Shown here piece after piece: positions 24,147 to 58,262 of a DNA stretch of 64,000 nt. The notes below the pieces were generated by a model. That model worked only from the letters and a program-made list of their open reading frames with translations. It was not told where the DNA came from and did no database searches. The position numbers and the translations under genes are program-made. Position 1 is the first letter of the stretch. Each line of letters opens with the position of its first letter. The DNA is taken from NCBI GenBank assembly GCA_965246715.1, contig CBDFFH010000005.1, positions 311,148-375,147 on the forward strand, given 5' to 3'. Source of the DNA: Chamaesiphon sp. Lineage in GTDB: Bacteria; Cyanobacteriota; Cyanobacteriia; Cyanobacteriales; Chamaesiphonaceae.

Positions 24147-25139
24147 TCATTTCCCACCATTACCTGCCAACAAATTCTCCAGCATCCCAGAAGCACCCTT
24201 CTGTTCCTGCCGTCGATTATCATCATACAAATTCAAAGTATTCTGATTTCGATGCCGACTCAACGCCTGCGCTGCCCGCAGATTACCTCCACTAGCATCT
24301 AAAAACGCCGTAATCGAACTATGCCGCAAACGATGAGGCGACACCCGCCGCTCGATCCCCGCAGCCTCAGCATAGCCCTGAACGATCCGATAAATACTAT
24401 CCCCAGCAATCCTCGCCCCATAACAATTGTGGCTCAAAGAAACAATTAGTGGCTGTCCTGGCACATTACAGGGATGAAAATTCAGCCACTCCGCCACAGC
24501 ATAACTCACACTATCGCTAAGATCGATCGCCACCTTCGCTCGTTTCCCCTTCCCCAAAATCGTCAACTTCTGCTGCTGAGGTAGAAAATCCTCAATATTC
24601 GCACTGGCAATTTCGCCCCGCCGGAGCGCATTGCCCCAGAATAATAGCATGATTGCATAATCCCTCACCCCAATCGGCGTACTCGGATCGATTGCCGCCA
24701 ACATCGATTTAAACTGTTCGACCGAAATTCCCCTAGTATCGCGATAAGTTTCAGCGGGAATGCTCTCGATATCGCCCAGATCGGTCGTGGTTTTACCCAG
24801 CTTCCGCGCCATATCGGTTAAGCTCTTAATCGCCGCCAGCCGGACATTAATCGTGCTGGGTGCCAGATTTTTATCGATCGAGTGACGACGATACCTTAAT
24901 ACCATCTCAATTGCCGCATATCGATCGAGATCTAGAAATTCCGAGATCGTTGCTGGGGTCGCAGAGCCACTATAAGCAAACTGACAGAAATTCTCGATCG
25001 CCTTAACGTACTGTTTCCTAGTACTATCGGTAATCTTCAACTGCCCAAACTCCGCCCAGAGATTATCTCGATCGACTGTGGTTAATTCGGCTGGGGACGG
25101 CTGGAGTTTGATAAGTTGGGGAGTAAGGTTATTTAGCAC
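24147..25139 (-). CDS. Tyrosine recombinase/integrase (XerC/D-like)
   Basis: NALRRGEI (R), GKG (K), PHRLRHS (HxxR), SRH, LNLYDD (Y). Confidence 0.93.
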   Translation of the reverse strand: MLNNLTPQLIKLQPSPAELTTVDRDNLWAEFGQLKITDSTRKQYVKAIENFCQFAYSGSATPATISEFLDLDRYAAIEMVLRYRRHSIDKNLAPSTINVRLAAIKSLTDMARKLGKTTTDLGDIESIPAETYRDTRGISVEQFKSMLAAIDPSTPIGVRDYAIMLLFWGNALRRGEIASANIEDFLPQQQKLTILGKGKRAKVAIDLSDSVSYAVAEWLNFHPCNVPGQPLIVSLSHNCYGARIAGDSIYRIVQGYAEAAGIERRVSPHRLRHSSITAFLDASGGNLRAAQALSRHRNQNTLNLYDDNRRQEQKGASGMLENLLAGNGGK

Positions 25140-25180
25140 GATCGATCTTCTTATTTGACTAGGCTAAAATTTCCGAGCAT

Positions 25181-25579
25181 TTATTTGAGCAAGTAATTCT
25201 CAAGTTCTGAATATTGGGAAAATAAACCATCCACACTAGCTAACTTCGCCCCAGATTCTAAAGCTGTGGCAATAATCAATCGATCGAACGGATCTTTATG
25301 AACTGGAGATAACTCGACTGCACGAGCAGCAATATTTGCAGTCAGTGGAAACAATTCAATTCCAACTGGATCGAGAGCTTGTTGAAACCATTCTTGTGGG
25401 GTAGTAGAAATCTTGATTCGGCCCTTTTGATGTGCCATCGCAATCTCATAACAGGATACCGGAGAGATGCCAACACGAGCGGCAGATTCGATCCGCTCTC
25501 GCCAGTGAGCCGGAAATTCTGCAAAATTAGCATTGATAAGCCAAAGCCAGATGTGCGTGTCGAGAATGATTATTTCAGA
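25181..25579 (-). CDS. PIN-domain (VapC-like) toxin
   Basis: ILDTHIWLW, SCYEIA, HKDPFDRLIIATA. Confidence 0.92.
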   Translation of the reverse strand, partial: SEIIILDTHIWLWLINANFAEFPAHWRERIESAARVGISPVSCYEIAMAHQKGRIKISTTPQEWFQQALDPVGIELFPLTANIAARAVELSPVHKDPFDRLIIATALESGAKLASVDGLFSQYSELENYLLK

Positions 25580-25797
25580 CATTCCCAATCTTCCTCAGCC
25601 ACAATTGGACTGACGATATCCCCTAAAATTTGAACCGTTCCTGCCAATTCAGTTGGAAATGTTCGGCGTTTGGTAGTAGGGAGTAACGTCTCTTCAAGCA
25701 CTGTCACGACTACACGGGCAGAATGTACCAAAGATGGTCGATCTACTAGCCACTTCATCTCACCATTTTCATAAATTGCTTCATAGCTTTTCAACAT
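25570..25797 (-). CDS. Putative antitoxin (AF2212/DUF104-like)
   Basis: SYEAIYENG motif; small; overlaps the toxin start. Confidence 0.78.
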   Translation of the reverse strand: MLKSYEAIYENGEMKWLVDRPSLVHSARVVVTVLEETLLPTTKRRTFPTELAGTVQILGDIVSPIVAEEDWECLK

Positions 25798-25849
25798 AGC
25801 TTTATTTCCAGTGATACTCGATCTGATTTAAGAACAATTATACTAAGGA

Positions 25850-25906
25850 TTAGATTAACATTTTCGCGATGTAATCTCGAAATTCTAGATGTTGATAAAG
25901 TCTCAT
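25850..25906 (-). pseudogene. 5' stub of a probable AbiEii-type nucleotidyltransferase toxin (MRLYQHLEFRDYIAKMLI*)
   Basis: ATGA overlap with the stop of the AbiEi-like gene; only 18 codons remain. Confidence 0.5.
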
Positions 25907-26613
25907 TTGGCTTGCCACTCCTGGGCATACCAGAGAGTACTCAATTTTCCAAATTCAAACCGCGAGTAAGGATTCAAGCCCATTCTCAACTGCTGTAATA
26001 ACTCCTTTGCATATTTCAATTCCTGTCCGATTGCCCCTAACATCGCTCGAACTCTCGGCGGTTCGGCGTGAGCGATAACGACTAATCGCTCGAATCGTCC
26101 TGGGACTCGAAAGTGATTCAGTAATTGCTCGTTCGTTTCTGCGGGTGATAAGTCGCTCCATTCTCCCCGCGATCGTAAAAAGTCTAGCAGGGCTGCTTCG
26201 GTAGCCGATAAATTCTCCCATGTACTCGGGCGACGGGTATAAAGTTTGGCTCTTTGTCCCAACCACGCTGTCGGTAAACTATTGGCAGTAGTAGCGAAAG
26301 TCCCATCGATTGCATTTTGAGTCGTAAATCCGAGTAAATTAGCAGCATTTACTCCGGCTGGATAGACGCGGGTTTGAGTGAGTTGATAGGGTAATTCAGA
26401 TCGGACTGGTTGGCTGTAACCGAATCGAGTTGGGCGAGGATGGTAGTAATGTCCTTTGCTGATACGTTGGAGAATGCCTTCTTTAACCAATTGGGTGAAG
26501 GTTTTAGCAATGGTGGCTGAGGGATAGTCGGATAAATCTTGATGGTTCCAAAATCTTTCCCCGCCAGCAAGAATCCGTTGGCGGATGGATTCAGTCTTGG
26601 TTAGGGTTTTCAT
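25903..26613 (-). CDS. AbiEi-like / DUF6088-type antitoxin with N-terminal wHTH
   Basis: LVKEGILQRISKGHYY wHTH; AANLLGFTTQN motif. Confidence 0.75.
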   Translation of the reverse strand: MKTLTKTESIRQRILAGGERFWNHQDLSDYPSATIAKTFTQLVKEGILQRISKGHYYHPRPTRFGYSQPVRSELPYQLTQTRVYPAGVNAANLLGFTTQNAIDGTFATTANSLPTAWLGQRAKLYTRRPSTWENLSATEAALLDFLRSRGEWSDLSPAETNEQLLNHFRVPGRFERLVVIAHAEPPRVRAMLGAIGQELKYAKELLQQLRMGLNPYSRFEFGKLSTLWYAQEWQAK

Positions 26614-26732
26614 CGCGTGAAGAATGGAATGCTAGTCGCTGTCTCAATTTTAAACTATTTTCCAGGTTTTTAACAGAAAAACTTCTAGTCAAGCGTAGCA
26701 GAGCAAAATAATACGAACACATTGCAGACGAC

Positions 26733-26761
26733 ATGTATAGAAAAGACTATTTTCTATACAT
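26733..26761. promoter_or_regulatory. Perfect 12-bp inverted repeat in the divergent promoter region
   Basis: ATGTATAGAAAA-GACTA-TTTTCTATACAT. Confidence 0.6.
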
Positions 26762-26907
26762 ATTTTTCCAACGTGCATAGATTTGACCTATTTTTGATAA
26801 ACGTTGCCACGATCGTATCCAATCGTGGAAATCTGGATCGTGACGCAAATAGATAGTGAAATTAATATATGTTATTTTTGATATGTGTTAATTTTACTAG
26901 CTATTTT

Positions 26908-28071
26908 ATGCGAACTAATCCTGGCGGTGGGCTGGCACCAGAAGAAGTGGTAGGGCGCGATGCACTCATCGCCGATCTGTGGGACAAATTGGAGCGTCAC
27001 AGCGTGATGATGACAGCCGAGCGACGGATGGGCAAAACCAGCGTGTTGAGGAAAATGCTAGCACAGCAGCCACCAGGGATAACAGCATTTTATTGGGACT
27101 TAGAGAATATCCGATCGCCCGAAGCTCTGGTGCAGGAGATATTTAATAAAGTCAGTGAGGATCTTGGCAACAGCCAAAAATGGCAGGGCAAAGTTCAGCA
27201 ACTGCTTAAAAACTGGGGATTGGGCGGGGAGAAGATTGCCGGAGTCAGCTTACCTAAGCCAGATTTGACTTGGCAACAACATCTTCAAGGCATAGTGCGG
27301 GATCTTTCTGCCCAAGTCGCAGATCGAGAACGTTGGTTATTCTTATTCGATGAGTTGCCGCTAGCGATCGATAACATCCGGCAGGATAAAGGAGCTAGCA
27401 TCGCAATGGAAGTACTCGATACTTTAAGATCGATCCGCCAAGACTATCCCCAAATTCGGATGGTGTACACCGGATCGATCGGTTTGCATCATGTGGTGGC
27501 AGAGCTAAGGCAGCAAGGATATCGGAATGCACCCACTAACGATTTACCATTTGTAGAAGTAGAGCCGCTGGCTGAGTATGATGCTTGGAAACTGGCACAG
27601 GATCTGTTGATTGGCGAGAAAGTGGCAACTGAGGATCTGGCAGCAGTAAGTCAAGCAATCGCCTTAGCAGTCGATGGCAATGCTTTCTATATTCATCACA
27701 GTGTTGCCAGACTCAAAGGGATAGCTCAACCGATCGATGTCGCACGAGTAGAAGCGATGCTCCAAGCAGCGGTGCGTCAGTATGATGTTTGGGATCTGAG
27801 CTACTTTGAAAAGCGCATTGGTAGCTACTATGGAGAAAATGCCAAGTTGGCACTCCTAGCATTAGACGAACTAGCTCCAGAATTAGCATTAACGATCGGT
27901 GACTGGTGGAATCGGGTGAGTATCCAGACACCAAATCTGAATAAAGAAGTTTTTCGCTCGACGCTCAATCTGTTAGAACAAGACCATTATATTTGCCGAA
28001 ATGACGCGGGAGCCTACCAGTTTCGCTTTTCGCTAGTGCGACGCTATTGGCATCAGCAACGGGGGAATTAG
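26908..28071 (+). CDS. STAND/AAA-type P-loop ATPase with C-terminal wHTH and no effector domain
   Basis: VVGRD, Walker A AERRMGKTS, Walker B LFLFDEL, YTGS, GNAFYI; ATG 26908 preferred. Confidence 0.8.
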   Translation: MRTNPGGGLAPEEVVGRDALIADLWDKLERHSVMMTAERRMGKTSVLRKMLAQQPPGITAFYWDLENIRSPEALVQEIFNKVSEDLGNSQKWQGKVQQLLKNWGLGGEKIAGVSLPKPDLTWQQHLQGIVRDLSAQVADRERWLFLFDELPLAIDNIRQDKGASIAMEVLDTLRSIRQDYPQIRMVYTGSIGLHHVVAELRQQGYRNAPTNDLPFVEVEPLAEYDAWKLAQDLLIGEKVATEDLAAVSQAIALAVDGNAFYIHHSVARLKGIAQPIDVARVEAMLQAAVRQYDVWDLSYFEKRIGSYYGENAKLALLALDELAPELALTIGDWWNRVSIQTPNLNKEVFRSTLNLLEQDHYICRNDAGAYQFRFSLVRRYWHQQRGN

Positions 28072-28075
28072 CAAA

Positions 28076-31000
28076 ATGGCGAACCAGATGATTTCGGCGT
28101 TTACGCCCAGCCTGATGTCCCCTCAAGAGCTAGAGACGATCCTCGTGCAGCGGCAGGATTTGGCGCAGGAACTATTCGAGAAAATCGTGTTGAGTGCGAC
28201 GACTCCAGCCAAACATTATGCCTTGCTGATTGGAATGCGGGGGATGGGGAAGACGCATTTGGTGGCACTGATTTATTATCGATTGCTAGCAGAGTTCGAT
28301 CGCAACCCAACGTTCAAAGATAAGTTGGTTATTGCTTGGCTGCGGGAGGAGGAATGGGGGGTAGATTCCTGGTTGGATTTGGTGAGTCGGATTCTGCGCG
28401 CTCTAGCCGTTGCAGAACCTCAGTCGAAATCGCTCCTAGAGGAGTTACGACGGATTTCGATCGAGGATTCGATCGATCGAGCGGCGGCTAATGCGACTCG
28501 ATTGTTGAAGGAAGCAATTGGGAATCGCACCCTATTGCTGATGATGGAGAACCTCGACGATCTGTTTAAAGGCTTGGGAGAAGCGGGTCAGCAGCAGTTT
28601 CGGTCTTTCTTGCAAGCGGAGCAGTGCTGCACGATTTTAGCGACTACTCCGGCGTTATTTACTGCGGTGCAAAGTCGTACCAAACCATTTTTTGGGTTCT
28701 TCAATCCGATTTATCTCGACAGGTTGACTGTACCAGAAGCGATCGAAATGTTGGGAAAGATTGCCACTTTAGGGGGACAGGAAGAGTTAGCAAGTTTCTT
28801 ACAAACACCCTTGGGACGGGCGCGGGTGCGAGCGGTACATCATTTGGCTGGGGGAAATCCACGGGTGTATATGCTGTTTTCGCAGTTTATTACGCGGGAT
28901 GCTTTGGATAGTTTGGTAGAGGCATTTATGAAGATGCTCGACGACTTGACACCTTACTATCAAGCGCGGATGAAGGAGTTATCCAATCAACAGCGGAAGA
29001 TTGTCGAGTTATTGGTGGACAAGCGACATCCGGTGATGGTTAAGGAGATTGCAGCGGACTGTTTTATCGATCCGGGGACGGCAGCGAGTCAGTTGCGGGA
29101 GTTGCGGAAGCTGGGCTACGTGGAAGCGGAGCAGAATGGGCGCGAGTCCTTTTATGAGCTGCACGAAGTGTTGATGCGCCTGTGTTTGGAGGTAAAAAAG
29201 CAGCGGGGGCAGTGGATCGAGATTTTTGTGGAGTTTCTCAAAATTTGGTATCCGCTCTCGGAACGCAAGAACCAGTTAGAGTTGATGCGGGGTAAGAGTC
29301 AATATATCAAAGACGAACATTTAGAGCGTGCGTTGTTGAGTGATGAAGATCCCTGCTTTATCGGTTCGCAGCGGGATTTGCAGCGAGCGTTGAAGGAACA
29401 GCAACAGTTATTAGCTACTGAGACATTAGAAGAATTATTTCATAGCAAAAGGCTGACTGAAGAAAATTACCAAGAGATTTTGGAATTGGTGCAGACGGAT
29501 CGATATAGTGAAGCTCAGAAGCTATTATCAGAGATCGTCAGTCAAAAAGATCGATCGGTTGAGAAATCTGAGCTAACCTTTTCGCTACAACTTTTGGCAG
29601 GATTGGAGCTACTGGCAGCAAAGAAAAATTTAGAAGCTCTAGAACTGTTTGATACGCTGTTAGCTGAGAATGAAAGCGATGTAGATGCTTGGAGTATGCG
29701 AGGTATTTCTCTGCGTAGACTAGGAAGATATGAAGAAGCAATCGTTAGTTACGATCGGGCGATCTCGATTAAATTCGATGACCATGAAACTTGGAATAAC
29801 CGAGGTATTTCTCTGCATGATTCAGGAAGATATGAAGAGGCGATCGCTAGTTACGATCGTACGATTGAACTCAAACCAGATAACTATGAAGCTTGGTATA
29901 ACCGTGGAGTTTGTTTGGATAATTTAGAAATGTATAAAGAAGCGATCTCCAGCTATGAAGGTGCGCTCGAATATAAACCAGCTTTAAAAGAAGCTTGGCA
30001 CAACCGTGGCATCTCTCTGGGTAAATTAGCAAGATATGAGGAGGCGATCGCCAGCTTCGATCGAGCAATAGAGATTCAGCCCGATAAAGATGATGCTTGG
30101 TACAATCGAGGGATTACTCAAGGAAAGTTAGGCAATCATCAAGATGCACTTGACAGTTTCGATCGAGTCATAGAGATTCAACCCAGTAAATATAATGCTT
30201 GGTACGATCGAGGTGTATCTCTAGGGCTTTTAGGAAGATATGAGGAAGCAATTGATAGTTACACTCATTTTATATCTATTAAACCTGATGAGCCTGAAGC
30301 TTGGTACGGCAAAGGGACTGCTCAAGGAAATTTAGGAAAATATGAAGAGGCAATTCATAGTTTCGATCGGACGATTGAGCTTAAATCTGACGACTGTAGT
30401 GCTTGGCACGATCGAGGTCTATGTTTTCACTATTTAGGGGATTATGAACGGGCAATCTTCAGTTTCGATCGGGCTTTGTCGATTGAAGTCAATGACTATA
30501 AATCTTGGAGCGATCGAGGTACTTCTCTGACCGATTCAGGAAGATATGAAGAGGCGATTGATAGCTTCAATCGCGCTATCTCGATCGAACCTGATGAATA
30601 TATACCCATTCATAATCAGGGTTGGGTTTATTTCAAATTTGGTAAGTTTACGGAATCACTCAATTGTTTCGAGCGAGCGATTGCGCTCGCACCGAATAGT
30701 CATGTTTCTTGGTATCGCAAAGGACTCGTTCAATTTGTCATGGGCAATTACGAAAATGCCCTTAATTCTTGGCAACAAACTTTTCAAATCATCCACCAAC
30801 TCACTCCACGTCTCAATGATATTGCCGGACTCATCCAAGAATTCCTCGGACAACTAATTCCCCGACTCTCATTACTCATCAACCCACTCCTACCAAGCGA
30901 AGCTAAAGTATCAATCCTGCCGCCGATTAGCATCTCACCTCCACCATCCCTCAACCCGTCAACACCTCCATCCACAAACTCCTCGCCGCCTCCACCATTC

Positions 31001-31432
31001 AACCCATCAACTCCGCCACCTGCTAACCCATCAATACCACCATCGACTAACCCATCCATACCTCCATCGTTGCCTTGGCTACCGGAGGTAATCGACTTCT
31101 CACCGCCTCCATTTATCTACTCATCCACCTTCCTTAACCAAATCGTCACCATCTATCAACAAGCCCGAGTCCTCCCCGAACTCAGCACCGCCCTGATTGC
31201 CACCCTCCCCCAAATCCTTGCTCCTAATATTAGCGATCGCACCGCCAATGAATGGTTAGCCCTGTGGCAAAACCTCCTTGGCACCGAATCCGCCCTAGAA
31301 ATGCCCCTGCGCCTGATGAATGTGGCGATCGCTTACAAAAAACAACCCGCCCAACAAAAACGCCTCTGGCTGGGGCTAGCCAAGGAAGAGCGAGCGATCC
31401 TCAATGGAGCTTTGGGATTAGAAGAGTCCTGA
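28076..31432 (+). CDS. STAND-type ATPase with wHTH, about 11 TPRs and a Pro-rich tract
   Basis: Walker A GMRGMGKT, degenerate Walker B LLMMENLD, GGNPR, HTH KEIAA...SQLRELRKLGYV, 34-aa WxxRG...YEEAI repeats. Confidence 0.85.
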   Translation: MANQMISAFTPSLMSPQELETILVQRQDLAQELFEKIVLSATTPAKHYALLIGMRGMGKTHLVALIYYRLLAEFDRNPTFKDKLVIAWLREEEWGVDSWLDLVSRILRALAVAEPQSKSLLEELRRISIEDSIDRAAANATRLLKEAIGNRTLLLMMENLDDLFKGLGEAGQQQFRSFLQAEQCCTILATTPALFTAVQSRTKPFFGFFNPIYLDRLTVPEAIEMLGKIATLGGQEELASFLQTPLGRARVRAVHHLAGGNPRVYMLFSQFITRDALDSLVEAFMKMLDDLTPYYQARMKELSNQQRKIVELLVDKRHPVMVKEIAADCFIDPGTAASQLRELRKLGYVEAEQNGRESFYELHEVLMRLCLEVKKQRGQWIEIFVEFLKIWYPLSERKNQLELMRGKSQYIKDEHLERALLSDEDPCFIGSQRDLQRALKEQQQLLATETLEELFHSKRLTEENYQEILELVQTDRYSEAQKLLSEIVSQKDRSVEKSELTFSLQLLAGLELLAAKKNLEALELFDTLLAENESDVDAWSMRGISLRRLGRYEEAIVSYDRAISIKFDDHETWNNRGISLHDSGRYEEAIASYDRTIELKPDNYEAWYNRGVCLDNLEMYKEAISSYEGALEYKPALKEAWHNRGISLGKLARYEEAIASFDRAIEIQPDKDDAWYNRGITQGKLGNHQDALDSFDRVIEIQPSKYNAWYDRGVSLGLLGRYEEAIDSYTHFISIKPDEPEAWYGKGTAQGNLGKYEEAIHSFDRTIELKSDDCSAWHDRGLCFHYLGDYERAIFSFDRALSIEVNDYKSWSDRGTSLTDSGRYEEAIDSFNRAISIEPDEYIPIHNQGWVYFKFGKFTESLNCFERAIALAPNSHVSWYRKGLVQFVMGNYENALNSWQQTFQIIHQLTPRLNDIAGLIQEFLGQLIPRLSLLINPLLPSEAKVSILPPISISPPPSLNPSTPPSTNSSPPPPFNPSTPPPANPSIPPSTNPSIPPSLPWLPEVIDFSPPPFIYSSTFLNQIVTIYQQARVLPELSTALIATLPQILAPNISDRTANEWLALWQNLLGTESALEMPLRLMNVAIAYKKQPAQQKRLWLGLAKEERAILNGALGLEES
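30941..31069 (+). repeat. Degenerate 24-bp tandem repeat (5 units and a partial) encoding PPxxNPS-like octapeptides
   Basis: PPSLNPST PPSTNSSP PPPFNPST PPPANPSI PPSTNPSI PPS. Confidence 0.8.
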
Positions 31433-31675
31433 ATGTTAGATCGGTTTATGATTCTTTTAAGTATCGATCGATTAGCTTTGTGCTATATATTAGCTCCTGC
31501 CGCATACTGGCTAAACTTAAAAATTTGGCGCGTTGGGCACTTTTAGCCAACTTGGTGGCTGTCCATTCAAGGGGTTTCCCCTATGAAGAGGAAGCGTAGC
31601 GTGACTTTTCTGGTTCGCGTCCGATGGCCAACGAGCAGGCGGGATGCGAACGTGCATTGGTCGCGCTGCACCCTT

Positions 31676-32404
31676 CTACTCAGCTTCCTCGCCGGACGCG
31701 TCGGCGTGGGTAGGCGCGGTGTAGGTGTCGGCATCCTGGAAATCTTCCAGCCAGTAAGCTGAGCTTACTACATCGAAGGTGATGGATTCCGCCGTTTTCT
31801 CTACTGCCCGCAGCTCCCACAGGATCGAGGCAGCCTCCGCGAATTTATCGTCCGCTAGACGATCCGAATACAGTCGGTTGAGCAGCGCATTATCGGGCAG
31901 GCCCACGGCCAGCAGGCGCAGCAGGGGCGCGGCAGCCGTGGCGCGTTCGCCCGCATCGGGGCCAAAAACAGCCAAATCAGCCGCGCTCACCGCCGTGCAT
32001 TTCACCTGAAACTCCACCGCCTCCACGCTTGGAAACGTGCCATTGAAGGCTTCGTGCAGTAGCTGCGTAGCTTGGTAAAAGCCACGGTGCAGCGGCAGAT
32101 CGGGGTTTTCTTCCCACAGGCGCTCGGTGAGCATCTGGTGGGCCAGGTTCTCCACCTGGCCGACTGTCAGCTCCTCCGGGAACAGGTAGGTGAGCACGGC
32201 CACGGCCGCCGAGCGCGGCTCCAGGTCGGTGAGGCCCATCTGGCACATCTCCTTCAGTTCGGCTTCGGGCAGGGCATTGGGGTTGTCAAAATTGAGCTGC
32301 GCGAGCAGGGCGCGGTAGTCGGCCGCCTGCCAGGAGTGCGGCAGCTCGGTAAGGGTAGCAAAGCTGAGGCGTTCGACGGTGAAAGTGGGAGTGGAGGCAG
32401 TCAT
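31676..32404 (-). CDS. Hypothetical acidic protein, high GC, probably horizontally acquired
   Basis: 242-aa ORF; GC-rich codons; no CGATCG seen inside. Confidence 0.8.
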   Translation of the reverse strand: MTASTPTFTVERLSFATLTELPHSWQAADYRALLAQLNFDNPNALPEAELKEMCQMGLTDLEPRSAAVAVLTYLFPEELTVGQVENLAHQMLTERLWEENPDLPLHRGFYQATQLLHEAFNGTFPSVEAVEFQVKCTAVSAADLAVFGPDAGERATAAAPLLRLLAVGLPDNALLNRLYSDRLADDKFAEAASILWELRAVEKTAESITFDVVSSAYWLEDFQDADTYTAPTHADASGEEAE

Positions 32405-32552
32405 AATTGGTTAGTTGAAGTATGTCAATATGTTTTCTCTCATGTGGCAAAGACTTGGGGCTGGTGAAGGAATCGATCGAGCTAAGTACTACTTAGACTG
32501 ACCTATTTTCAGTATGCCCAAACTCTTCCTATTAAAAGTTGGACTAGATTTA

Positions 32553-32726
32553 GCCCTCTTCTGTCACTCTCCAGAGAGCATAATCCCAAACCCTTGCTGC
32601 ATAAGCTTTTATCACAAATCTCCACGATTGAGCTATCGATCGCTAAATAAAGCTTCAAAACTTTTTGAGATAAGGCTTGTAGCGATCGCCTTCGCTTTTT
32701 AGTTAAGGAGAGTGACAGAAGAGGGC
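32553..32726. mobile_element. MITE (174 bp), TA-flanked, perfect 20-bp terminal inverted repeats
   Basis: TA-GCCCTCTTCTGTCACTCTCC ... GGAGAGTGACAGAAGAGGGC-TA. Confidence 0.88.
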
Positions 32727-33041
32727 TATATTGCGAGATGGATAGATGGCTACAGATCTCCAGTCGGAGAATGAATTTCGATTTCGATAAGTGTAAATGG
32801 AAATCTCACTAACCATTCGTTCGTACAGCAACTTATCAGACTGAAACTGCACCTCACAAAAATAGATTATTCCTGATGGTAATGGTGGGATAAATACCCC
32901 ATCGATTCTAAAAGCTGTTTCCTTAACCTCAATTGAATCAAAAATATATCGCTCGGCATCGCTCGGTGGTTGAGAAATGAGATCGAATAACAGAGTTGGT
33001 GACTGTTGAAATAACTGATAGAAAATTGTATCGCGGCGCAT
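32727..33041 (-). pseudogene. Rpn/DUF2887 PD-(D/E)XK protein truncated at the MITE
   Basis: MRRDTIFYQLF, SIEVKETAFRIDGVF, FCEVQFQ, then reads into the MITE end. Confidence 0.85.
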
Positions 33042-35251: not shown

Positions 35252-36409
35252 CTACCGAGCACCCTGTTGGGGACCGATGGCGCGCCGCAACGACTCAGCA
35301 CTCGGTGGTGTTGGTTGATTACAAAGATCGCCGTTACCGTTGCCACAGTTCGACTCGAAGTCATCAGCCATTTGCTGCAACTCGGGTCGGGTTGGGATCG
35401 GCGGCGGCGGGTCAGTGGGCAGCATAGAAGGTTCAACACCTGTGGAGTTCAGCTGAGCAATGACCGAGCGAGCCACAGTTCGACCCAATGCTATGCCGTT
35501 AATGTGATCCGTTCGCCAGTGAATACCCGCCCACAAGCGTGCCATGCCAATGTTATCGGCTAGCTTGTCAAGTTCATCTTTTGCTTCTGGGAAAAAACAT
35601 GAGAGAAGTTCACTCGCAGCACCGGAATAAGTGCTGTGCCCTGATGGGTAAGCCGGATGTCGTGGTGTGCCCGGTGATGGCATTGGTTTTGTCCTTGGAT
35701 TGCCATCCTGCACCTCACCGCTACTCAAATCGACTTCCGTGTCGTAGAGCACGTTCAGTGGGGGCAAGCCCTGGCTGACAGCATACTCAAATGGACGCTG
35801 GCGGCGGGCAACAAGATCCGTGCGGTCGGTAGCCAGCCATTTGTAATGCCACGCTGCTAAAAGTGCGCTGGAGATTGCGACGTCAAGAGCAGCCCACACC
35901 CAAGCTTGGCGAGGCGGTGACCAGTCCTTCACACGAATCAACCCGTTGAGTGCATGTCGATGAGCTAATCCTGGCGTTTCCCCTTCAAAATAGCGGGCAA
36001 GTTCCCGTCCAGTTTCTACGAGAGGCTGGTTGAGACGAAGTGTTCTGACTACGGCACCTAACGGCGGCGGCGCGAACTTAATCGTTTTAGAAGAGATCAT
36101 CAAGTCTCCGCCAGTGAGGAATACGCTCATCTGCTTGCGCTCGCGCCCGGGGGGTCCACCGACTAACGCATTCGCATTGCCCCGTAATGATTCTAACTCG
36201 CGTAGTTCTGCGATTTCGGCATTTATAATCGCTTGACCCTCTGGCGTACCAGAATCAGGGTAGGAGGGAAAGAAGTTAGGACTGTTAGGATCATCAGTTC
36301 CCGCCTCCCTGAGGTCGTCTAGTGAAACAATGCGCGGTTGAGAACACCGATTCCAAAAACTTGCTTTAGGTTCAACTTGTGGTCCATATAAGTTATACTC
36401 GGTTACCAT
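35252..36409 (-). CDS. Vanadium-dependent haloperoxidase / PAP2 superfamily enzyme
   Basis: AAWHYKW...RQRP, HPAYPSGHS, ARLWAGIHWRTD; ATG 36409 with AAGGAG RBS. Confidence 0.82.
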   Translation of the reverse strand: MVTEYNLYGPQVEPKASFWNRCSQPRIVSLDDLREAGTDDPNSPNFFPSYPDSGTPEGQAIINAEIAELRELESLRGNANALVGGPPGRERKQMSVFLTGGDLMISSKTIKFAPPPLGAVVRTLRLNQPLVETGRELARYFEGETPGLAHRHALNGLIRVKDWSPPRQAWVWAALDVAISSALLAAWHYKWLATDRTDLVARRQRPFEYAVSQGLPPLNVLYDTEVDLSSGEVQDGNPRTKPMPSPGTPRHPAYPSGHSTYSGAASELLSCFFPEAKDELDKLADNIGMARLWAGIHWRTDHINGIALGRTVARSVIAQLNSTGVEPSMLPTDPPPPIPTRPELQQMADDFESNCGNGNGDLCNQPTPPSAESLRRAIGPQQGAR

Positions 36410-36826
36410 TGCTTTCTCCTTGTATTGGGTAATTTCAGAATTGCTTCTTCCATTAGAAGCATTCACACTCACGCGGTATTTGCCACGCAACTGCAAGGCT
36501 TACGGTACTGGACTGCTAATGGATGAGGCAACCAGTAAAACCGTTTGTGGGCAGCCATTTTAGAGATTCAAGCTTCGATTACCTAAAAACTTCGTCTGAC
36601 AAGGGTTTCAGGTAGCTAGCCTCTTTGTAGAGACCAGTGCCAGCGCCGATGGTAGTCATGACCTCTACTCTAATTAGATCTGACTGTTGCTTATTTCACT
36701 TCTGAATTGAGTTTATTTCTTATTGGTGTAAATTAGTAGTGCCCCAGCGAGAAACTTAATTATAGTTAATTCAAATAAAAATGCGGTTTTGCGGTCTCAA
36801 CTAGATTGATCGAGCATGGGTAATTA

Positions 36827-55988: not shown

Positions 55989-58262
55989 ATGATAGTTGTA
56001 GGGCAAGTCAATTGGTTCGGTGGCTTAAATAAAGAAAGAAATACTATTAATAACTTTGGATTTATTACTCCTTGTGGAGTAGCTAATTCTGAGAAAATTT
56101 TTGTCCACCGCAACAATGTACCAAAGTATTTACAAGATTTATTAGAGGCAAATAAAGGAGAAGGGGTTTATGTTGAATTTGAGATTGAGATAGATAAGGC
56201 GAATAGGCAGAGTGCTGTCAATGTTGAATTAAAAACTTTTATTAGCACTGTATCTAAGCATGAAAGTGGAAGACTATACATTAACTATGAAGATCGTTAT
56301 GATATCTACTTAAAATCTTCTAGTTCTTTGAAAGTTGGAGATATCTTGTATTTCGGTCTTCGCCATAGGTCGAATTACACAGAAGCAATTTCGATACAAA
56401 AAATTGAAGCTTCCTGCCAAAACATTGAGATTATTGAAAAGTGTATTCATAGTGATAATCCTGAGATTTTCAAAGTATTTCTAGCTCAATATGCCAAAAG
56501 TATTTCAAAAGAAGAAGCAAAGTCATTAATTCTCAAGAAAATTGAGCCTTTAAATCCTAGTGGAAAATGCTCTTTGATGAATAAGCTAGAGTCTATATGT
56601 CCATATGTGATTTTAGAATCACCTCAATTAAGAAATATTTTTAATGAATACAACTCTAATGGGTATGCTTGCTTTATCGATAAATATCTTGGCTTAGTTG
56701 ATGAAAATCTAATTCGTGAATTAGTAGATGAACTCATCGAAATTTTGAGAGGATACACTGATTCACAACGTTCTTTCTACTGGGATCGAATCAAATATCT
56801 TATAGATAACTTAGAATACAAAGGATATCTCTGGAATATTGCCCCGACTACTTATCAAAAACAGGTTATACAAAGCAAATATCAAAAATTCTTTGAAGTA
56901 GTCTCTCAGTTCGATGATTCTGATTATCCATATAGTCAAGCCACATCTCTTAGTTGTACTGAATTATACAATTTTACTGAAAATGACAATAAATTAATAC
57001 AAAAGTGGGTATCTGATGTTCCTGAGTATGATTCGTTTGCCAAAATGATGTCTGCTCGTGGAGCTGAGAAGCTAGTTATCAAATTTTACGAGACACTACT
57101 AGGTAACAAAGTAGAAGATATTTCAATTCATCAAGTTACTAAAGAAAGCGAAGATTGGAAAGTGGGTGACATTTGTCTTAACTCAAAAGATTTGATTGAT
57201 GTCAAAAATGCTCGTAAATCAAACAACTCAAATGTTTATTCTGAATTTTGTGTGCAAAGACATAAGAAAAATCAGGGAAGTGATGTAAAAATCATTGCTG
57301 TTTTATCTCCTATGTGTGGTAGGCAAGATATGGAAGATGCTATTATAAGCTCTCGCTTTGACAATCCCAAAGTATTAGGAAGTTTTGATAAGACAACTTT
57401 GAAAAAATTGGAGGAGTTTTTTATAAGTGAACGATTATCTACTATTCAAATATCAAGAGAAGGTAACTCAAATAATTATCTACCACCTTGGCTATTTGAT
57501 TATGACGATCTTTTTTATATCAAACAGATTGAGATTACCGCAAAATTCAAGCAATTAACAGATGTCGATATTCCAAAGTGGGAAGATGTTTTAATAATTA
57601 ACGAACCTGAAAAATTCTTTTCCATTTTCATAACTAGCAAACGTAAATTGCCACCTGACTGGCAAAATAATCTTCGCCATTGGGAAAAAGAATTTATCAA
57701 TGATTTGACGAATCTTCCTGTCGAGCGAATTTCATTACCTTATATATTTTTATCCTTATTAAGACATTTTTTAACTATGCTCTCCAGTAACGACCTGGAA
57801 TATAGTCCTCATCAATATCTAAATATACTAAGAACAGGCTGGATAGGTACTTATCCATTAAAAGTATACGATCCATTAGATATAATTAAGGATTTTTGTG
57901 AGTCGCTACAAAGTATTTGGCAATATCGGGAAAGTAAAGATTTAACTAAATTTAAAATTTTTAGATTTGATGGACAGGGGTTACTGCAAGGAAAGCATTC
58001 GGAGGGAGATCCTTTCAAGAAAATATTAGCTTACTGTGGAGGAAAAACCGATAAGGGTAAGTGCGGATGTACGCCCCTTGTCATCGGCAAGCATGAAACC
58101 TGCGAATTTTGTAAGTTCCTTATCTGCCCTATTGAAAAATGTGAATGTTGTTCCGAAGGCTGCAAGTCTTACCAGAAAAAGCTTAAAAAAAGAGAAGATT
58201 TAAAGCTAACGAAAAGAAGATTACCGGATATCAAGGCGGGAGAGCGAAAAAAGCACAGTTAA
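55989..58262 (+). CDS. AT-rich multidomain protein: cold-shock/OB domain, putative PD-(D/E)XK nuclease, Cys-rich Zn finger
   Basis: GQVNWF...FGFI...IFVH (RNP1/RNP2-like); RGAEKLV...GD...IDVKN; CGC..CEFC..CP..CECCSEGC. Confidence 0.65.
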   Translation: MIVVGQVNWFGGLNKERNTINNFGFITPCGVANSEKIFVHRNNVPKYLQDLLEANKGEGVYVEFEIEIDKANRQSAVNVELKTFISTVSKHESGRLYINYEDRYDIYLKSSSSLKVGDILYFGLRHRSNYTEAISIQKIEASCQNIEIIEKCIHSDNPEIFKVFLAQYAKSISKEEAKSLILKKIEPLNPSGKCSLMNKLESICPYVILESPQLRNIFNEYNSNGYACFIDKYLGLVDENLIRELVDELIEILRGYTDSQRSFYWDRIKYLIDNLEYKGYLWNIAPTTYQKQVIQSKYQKFFEVVSQFDDSDYPYSQATSLSCTELYNFTENDNKLIQKWVSDVPEYDSFAKMMSARGAEKLVIKFYETLLGNKVEDISIHQVTKESEDWKVGDICLNSKDLIDVKNARKSNNSNVYSEFCVQRHKKNQGSDVKIIAVLSPMCGRQDMEDAIISSRFDNPKVLGSFDKTTLKKLEEFFISERLSTIQISREGNSNNYLPPWLFDYDDLFYIKQIEITAKFKQLTDVDIPKWEDVLIINEPEKFFSIFITSKRKLPPDWQNNLRHWEKEFINDLTNLPVERISLPYIFLSLLRHFLTMLSSNDLEYSPHQYLNILRTGWIGTYPLKVYDPLDIIKDFCESLQSIWQYRESKDLTKFKIFRFDGQGLLQGKHSEGDPFKKILAYCGGKTDKGKCGCTPLVIGKHETCEFCKFLICPIEKCECCSEGCKSYQKKLKKREDLKLTKRRLPDIKAGERKKHS

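Follow-up and report, generated by a model that had tools for sequence, protein, structure and literature searches.

A pair of adjacent ATPase genes from the cyanobacterium Chamaesiphon sp. is a real, conserved and uncharacterised variant of the two-STAND operon kind. The two genes, called here A and B, lie within a stretch of 64,000 nucleotides (GenBank assembly GCA_965246715.1, contig CBDFFH010000005.1, positions 311,148 to 375,147), hereafter the window, whose numbering is used throughout. Gene A (26908-28071, plus strand) encodes 387 aa and gene B (28076-31432, plus strand), which starts 4 nt past gene A, encodes 1118 aa; two co-oriented P-loop genes at this spacing had been proposed in an original prediction made from the sequence, and their coordinates were confirmed. 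Together they constitute a mobile two-gene unit carrying its own conserved operator. This cassette is interpreted here, with a probability of about 0.55, as an NLR-like immune module in which B acts both as a repressor and as the TPR sensor of a foreign protein, and controls A, the output, through its residue Arg176. If the module is indeed immune, a bacterial NLR-like receptor would work as a sensor/executor pair without any fused effector. Such a split between sensor and executor is known from plant NLR pairs.

Two ATPases with distinct catalytic motifs and a predicted interface

Gene A encodes an MNS-type STAND ATPase composed of a nucleotide-binding domain, a helical domain and a winged helix. 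Its start is placed at 26908, as in the relatives; an in-frame ATG at 26869 falls within the operator described below. The structural model of the protein (predicted local distance difference test, pLDDT, 87) consists of the STAND core plus its own C-terminal winged helix. The fold search returned full-length matches to two archaeal MNS ATPases of the Pfam ATPase_2 family, PAB2304 (2QEN, the best match, Z 26.8, root-mean-square deviation 4.1, 338 aligned residues) and SSO1545 (2FNA, Z 25.2, deviation 4.4, 336 aligned), followed by plant NLRs and ORC/Cdc6 proteins. Because these archaeal matches extend over the full length, A can be described as a STAND core that ends in a winged helix of its own and bears nothing else. 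This winged helix had been missed by the original prediction, which had correctly reported that A carries no sensor or effector domain: none was found in the A protein of the window. The two archaeal proteins are nevertheless only 12-15% identical to A, and their entries include no B-like partner. At the level of Pfam, A produces only AAA matches below threshold; it falls below the ATPase_2 cut-off, and 31/101 family members match that profile weakly.

The model of B shows, in this order, a STAND core, a helical linker, the TPRs, a Pro-rich insert of low confidence and a helical cap. The core (aa 1-390; 28076-29245) contains the nucleotide-binding domain, which begins at residue 1, and an ArsR/MarR-like winged helix-turn-helix (wHTH) at about aa 297-372. 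The TPR array (aa 536-909; 29681-30802) comprises the 11 repeats also detected by Pfam. The insert (aa ~940-1007; 30893-31096), made of degenerate 24-nt repeat units, is absent from most relatives, and the contig of one relative has 37 other letters there. The cap (aa ~1014-1118; 31115-31432) is family-wide, members with few or no TPRs included, and its Glu1104 is kept in 93/101 paired members. No enzyme motif was recognised in this cap, with no Pfam match and no usable Atlas match, and the fold search with full-length B was filled by TPR proteins and barely probed it. A Pfam scan of B (best 25 of 41 families) and of the relatives' tails revealed TPRs and the helical cap only, with no HEPN or GT4 effector. 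The insert, the cap and the upstream operator are all additions to the original prediction. According to the models and fold searches, A and B both exhibit the serial STAND layout of nucleotide-binding domain, helical domain and winged helix, and they are distant homologues of one another (hhalign probability 95%, E 2e-8).

The catalytic motifs were compared in 101 paired members. In A, the Walker A motif (AERRMGKT, 37-44) is kept. It was previously taken for a variant, but the family normally has Ala as the first residue (93/101), in agreement with the general pattern [AG]x4GK[ST]. The acidic Walker B was recognised correctly (FLFDE, 145-149), its DE being invariant; at the GxP site only the Pro position is kept (97/101), and the window copy has an Ala there. 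In B, the canonical Walker A (GMRGMGKT, 53-60), the GxP motif (GGNPR, 259-263), the wHTH and the 11 TPRs are all present as announced: G56, G58 and K59 are found in 101/101 members, as are G260 and the sensor-2 Arg263. The Walker B of B (MENLD, 157-161) does lack the catalytic Glu, as had been noticed, but this is not random erosion, since the position belongs to a conserved [ED]N motif with Asn in 97/101 members. Because the DE pair of A is invariant and the catalytic Glu of B is replaced by Asn, A would be the hydrolysing partner, and B would mainly bind ATP and hydrolyse it poorly.

The hetero-oligomer suggested in the original prediction is supported by modelling. The predicted complex between B(1-500) and A received a score of 0.79, against 0.00 for the best of three controls; the mark adopted for this score is reached by 116/157 solved pairs and by 2/215 mismatched pairs. 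At least 72% of the contacts are common between runs, and the pLDDT of the partners is at least 82. On the B side, the predicted interface involves residues 170-183, including Arg176, and 198-211; on the A side, it involves the Walker A/B residues 39-40, 44 and 148-149, and the N-terminal arm of A is predicted to contact B 43-48. Such an arrangement corresponds to a head-to-tail AAA+ pair in which B would donate the finger. A comparable situation exists in ORC/Cdc6 hetero-oligomers, where one subunit receives an arginine finger from its partner. Like A, these proteins combine an AAA+ module with a winged helix, but they are replication initiators without TPRs, in contrast to the patchy and mobile A-B unit.

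The distribution of Arg176 provides independent backing for the predicted complex. This residue is kept in 160/160 non-solo B proteins and in 7/11 of those found without A (solo B), being replaced in the other 4, while all 11 retain the nucleotide-site residues Lys59, Asn159 and Arg263; three of these 11 sit on plasmids whose host chromosomes lay outside the search. Because Arg176 is inside the predicted interface, kept in paired B and lost in some solo B that retain their own nucleotide residues, it is likely an arginine finger acting on A.

A mobile unit with its own operator

An operator-like element made of imperfect palindromes repeated at a period of about 16 bp lies just upstream of gene A (26861-26904, plus strand) and is likely bound by the B wHTH. 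The upstream regions of relatives are enriched in palindromic words, and the motif was found de novo. It exists in two types, TACG/CGTA palindromes with a 16-bp period in one subfamily and TTGACAA-N8-TTGTCAA with a period of about 27 bp in another. One of these two types occurs in 80/107 cassette upstream regions, compared with 8/703 and 2/703 controls, a count rendered optimistic by matrices trained on the very regions counted. The recognition helix and wing of B are conserved within each operator type and differ between the types, those of A are not conserved, and in two loci (L056, L060) both the B helix and the operator are lost. In the window, the operator site scores 23.9 bits, the top score in the 6.1-Mb genome, and it is kept in 8 close copies with differing further flanks. 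Because this site ranks first and only three other independent sites exceed 12 bits, no regulon is apparent from the genome-wide matrix, and this candidate role was rejected. The original prediction had envisaged that the wHTH acts on DNA. It is indeed of a DNA-binding type, and its presence is likely best explained, on sequence grounds, by autoregulation at the cassette's own operator.

The neighborhood survey bears out an obligate pairing for A only. Among 79 loci seeded with A, B comes next in 72, a contig edge in 6, and a single locus, with a truncated A, has no B. Over all 197 long loci, a tally that includes relatives at 20-25% identity and in which a few loci are counted twice, 178 are paired, 17 end with the contig and 2 lack B, that is 178/180 informative loci. 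For B the proposed obligate pairing does not hold: a search of 401 genomes of the cyanobacterial phylum gave 25 matches in 23 genomes, 17 with A upstream and 8 without, and A was not found anywhere in the 8 solo-B genomes, which are about 99% complete. B thus persists alone. In Microcoleus, one and the same slot carries either A and B or B alone, and in a quick tree of B cores, with long branches, solo B appears at four separate points among paired B. Two loci (L024, L080) hold a B without TPRs still beside an intact A. Three solo forms deserve a separate mention: a 1836-aa protein whose TPR array is very extended, in the usual Microcoleus slot (L109, 3004-8514), and two distant B without Arg176 that are immediate neighbors of Pycsar cyclase genes, each on an alphaproteobacterial plasmid (L117, 8956-12192; L118, 1043-4144), possibly as recruited sensors.

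The A family comprises 1,527 clusters at 50% identity (E up to 1e-30), and to our knowledge it has no described function. Longer fused forms of A were also considered and rejected as weak evidence, their 16 weak matches looking like other STAND families. The closest relatives of the cassette are found in Chamaesiphon and related cyanobacterial assemblies; it is single-copy in its own genome, where other matches have E above 1e-7, and the likely source sequencing run agrees with the letters of the window. A contig from an RNA library (run X24, contig 25), when compared with 26750-31419, lacks four sizeable segments of A and B and may represent a library artefact or a decayed copy. In the RNA runs, compared at the level of contigs, the shares were small. 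The spread is patchy in three other phyla (8/351, 11/201 and 6/201 genomes, each including the centre genome), and the cassette also occurs on plasmids of several phyla. Carriage by phages was rejected, with zero matches in 50,697 phage records and in IMG/VR. Close copies have about 60 bp upstream in common and nothing downstream of B, and insertion sites vary among copies that are 92-96% identical.

Related systems and biological role

No system-level match to either ATPase was obtained from PADLOC (PADLOC-DB dated 2023) or NCBIfam, which yielded only generic HTH, TPR and weak P-loop matches; the absence of a named system, as originally proposed, is thus maintained. No description of this A/B family was found in the open-access literature, and no such pair appears in the accessible portions of PMC7159879, PMC12839542 and bioRxiv 10.64898/2026.10.19.760177. 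The claim that no characterised system is matched must nevertheless be qualified: the family itself is undescribed, but an operon of the same layout was published in 2021. This is the nSTAND2 pair, described computationally by Kaur et al. (PMC8195603), the closest description encountered. According to the available part of that paper, it is a mobile two-gene operon encoding a STAND protein with a wHTH and then an MNS-like STAND with a wHTH and TPRs, both with a conserved arginine finger and proposed to form a hetero-multimer; the second, impaired ATPase has eroded NTP-binding motifs and is usually fused to HEPN or GT4. As far as this partial comparison goes, B differs in keeping its Walker A and sensor-2 with only the catalytic Glu replaced, in lacking an effector and in ending with the helical cap. 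The nSTAND2 profile PF20702 matched 0/42 B cores and 0/101 A at E 0.001, and was met in 0/5 cassette-bearing genomes in a search that registered no positive control.

Other paired STANDs have been mentioned in the past: Npun2340/2341 were reportedly presented as paired MNS STANDs by Leipe in 2004. Pfam AAA_35, to which we take their family to be linked, weakly matches 16/101 A (best 7e-5) and 0/42 B.

Avs/AVAST proteins resemble B in joining a STAND NTPase to a C-terminal TPR sensor. According to the available part of Lee et al. (2026, PMC13581612), each Avs is one protein that does not kill without its effector domain, in contrast to the two genes, the lack of effector and the autoregulatory wHTH observed here. 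Neither protein of the window copy has the fused effector of the Avs type, as was already recognised, and nearly all members of the A family are without N-terminal extension. The Avs models gave no match to the ATPase parts of A or B, and six accessions and six motifs were not found in 7 supplementary files of Lee et al. (PMC13581612), who distinguish 589 STAND clades. The CARD-NLR/LypABC system (Banks et al. 2026, PMC13236601) also involves two interacting ATPase-bearing proteins, one with TPR-like repeats and one with a divergent ATPase. As far as the accessible text of that paper goes, this system depends on a third, effector gene as well as on CARD and trypsin-like peptidase domains; neither domain is present in A or B, and a conserved third gene was not found.

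An indication of a sensory function comes from the TPRs. Among 53 proteins whose cores are 93-100% identical to that of the window, the TPR number ranges from 4 to 11, and 172/182 internal TPRs are distinct. The variation is located at repeat positions 1, 2, 5, 6, 9, 12, 13, 22 and 34, presumably in large part the concave, ligand-binding face. Since repeat number and position-specific residues vary on near-identical cores, these comparisons indicate that the array may be a diversifying protein-binding surface. A genomic pool of near-identical TPR DNA that could serve gene conversion was looked for and rejected, the window repeats being 51-73% alike. A 1675-aa open frame on the minus strand of the same contig (G000 C5) is TPR-rich, with 26 repeats of a similar type, and locus L107 contains three identical tandem repeats, a recent duplication.

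The evidence for a defence role is mixed. In one relative (L041, 4318-7936), A bears a C-terminal TIR domain (E 2e-23) and is followed by a gene for a 217-aa hydrophobic protein, without PADLOC match, and then by B. In another (P0322), A is fused behind an N-terminal region of 547 aa in which Pfam named the ATPase only, and which we assume to be the vWA component of MoxR ternary systems. Of the seven plasmid regions opened, five have Qat, Pycsar, AbiE, DUF262/WYL or DUF3800/GIY-YIG genes as neighbors, solo B being present in two of these five, and one metagenome copy adjoins an Avs1a-like gene (one strong match among 25 hand-picked Pfam-blank neighbors).

In the proposed mechanism, B would repress the operon through its own operator, and its variable TPRs would sense a foreign protein, probably from a phage. 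This ligand would lift autoinhibition and alter the A:B assembly, in which B would bind A and control its ATP site through Arg176. Two directions can be envisaged. B may nucleate an active A/B (alternating) ring or, as a guard, it may stimulate hydrolysis and hold a toxic A off in an antitoxin-like manner. The near absence of solo A favors the guard, or an unstable A, and the retention of Arg174 of A, the counterpart of Arg176, in 99/101 members favors a larger ring. The output could be the assembled ATPase itself, draining ATP or clamping onto DNA, or else a host effector encoded elsewhere; in L041, it could be the TIR domain. A more specific proposal, in which the TPR STAND B would be a trans arginine-finger regulator (a GTPase-activating-protein-like guard or a ring nucleator) and the minimal STAND A would itself be the immune effector, with no nuclease, NADase or pore domain needed, is tentative. 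With hypervariable TPRs mounted on a constant framework, a single candidate switch residue (Arg176) and a delimited operator, the system lends itself to direct testing and might serve as a programmable protein sensor, and the TIR-bearing cassette of L041 is the best candidate for a phage test.

Several observations weigh against the immune interpretation or its components. Effector fusions are rare, with one in 197 loci and one long fusion among the best 150 representatives, and a conserved third gene was not found around the cassette loci. The expected enrichment in defence islands is not borne out: chromosomal neighbors are mostly housekeeping genes, and defence or toxin-antitoxin-like genes amount to 9/148 adjacent genes versus 4 clear and up to 9/148 distant ones (148 adjacent genes sampled of 197 and 148 distant, >5 kb, of 293, with classes read from Pfam names). 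The Microcoleus locus is inherited at a fixed site, and solo B retains long intact TPR arrays without A. Upstream of solo B, the operator matrix gives scores of no more than -13 to 16 bits, the covariation between helix and operator follows kinship and is thereby confounded, and the operator count is inflated in the way stated above. Finally, the complex score might pass through likeness to solved ORC/Cdc6 pairs, and the prediction gives interface residues, not an Arg176-to-ATP contact. An immune role is plausible but putative.

Ordinary chromosomal neighbors and the survival of B alone would also be expected from a non-immune switch of the MalT/PH0952 kind, in which the ligand sensed by B is a host protein or a metabolite, gene regulation goes through the B wHTH and A assists as an ATPase co-regulator. 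PH0952, as described in the accessible part of PMC6468293, is a single-chain TPR-sensor STAND regulator with an ArsR-like DNA-binding domain, and thus resembles B in its STAND core, arm-like helices, TPR sensor and ArsR-like domain; its structure 6MFV matched the B model at rank 37. Its DNA-binding domain is however a separate N-terminal one, whereas in B it is the wHTH of the STAND core itself that is ArsR/MarR-like, and B has in addition a partner ATPase. The switch is made unlikely by the lack of an apparent regulon, with the cassette's own site on top and three other sites above 12 bits, by the rapid change of TPR number and surface between near-identical strains, by the differing insertion sites of 92-96% identical copies and by the existence of a TIR fusion.

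Type II toxin-antitoxin pairs are typically autoregulated through one of the two partners. This feature, the scarcity of A alone when B can be alone, the plasmid copies and the B without TPRs that stay with an intact A (L024, L080) could all be accommodated by a selfish addiction module spreading to its own benefit, with B serving as antitoxin to a toxic ATPase, A, and repressing the operon; its TPRs would then be incidental or subject to drift. Such a module is rather improbable: most members have kept extensive TPR arrays that vary at specific positions, neither the gene order nor the small labile antitoxin usual for such pairs is present, and the toxicity of A is only putative. An effector-less remnant or scaffold, working with unlinked effectors of the same genome (vWA-MoxR, TIR or caspase proteins), is suggested by the presumed vWA region of P0322 and the TIR domain of L041, but is very improbable, since 178 loci from different phyla follow the bare-pair arrangement and their residues are strongly conserved, and since no adaptor domain for recruitment was seen.

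Neighboring genes of the window

The AbiEi-like gene (PADLOC E 3e-29), the PIN toxin with a weak AF2212-like partner and the tyrosine integrase that accompany the cassette are present as originally listed, but they belong to a separate module. The integrase and the AbiEi-like gene (24147-26808) recur together in many members of the bacterial family, the AF2212-like/PIN pair being located between them here. This unit ends near 26808, and the cassette matches separately from about 26823, with no row spanning both among the matches listed. A local defence island was therefore rejected, the AbiEi/PIN/integrase module traveling apart from the cassette. The AbiEii toxin gene was not found in the locus. 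The AbiEi operator may correspond to a 12-bp inverted repeat without mismatch at 26733-26761.

Downstream of the cassette, the region 31560-32420 has 61% GC in a genome of 46% GC, is devoid of HIP1-type CGATCG and encodes a 242-aa protein with no Pfam match. Near-identical DNA is found in other genomes of the family, which suggests the recent arrival of a foreign gene and not a misassembly. Three other genes were noted further along the window: a truncated DUF2887 (Rpn-like) gene with half of the profile matched (32703-33041), a 757-aa gene with a cold-shock domain and otherwise no Pfam match in a low-GC (32-39%) stretch (55989-58262), and a gene for a PAP2-family protein (35252-36496), whose motifs presumably resemble those of vanadium haloperoxidases.

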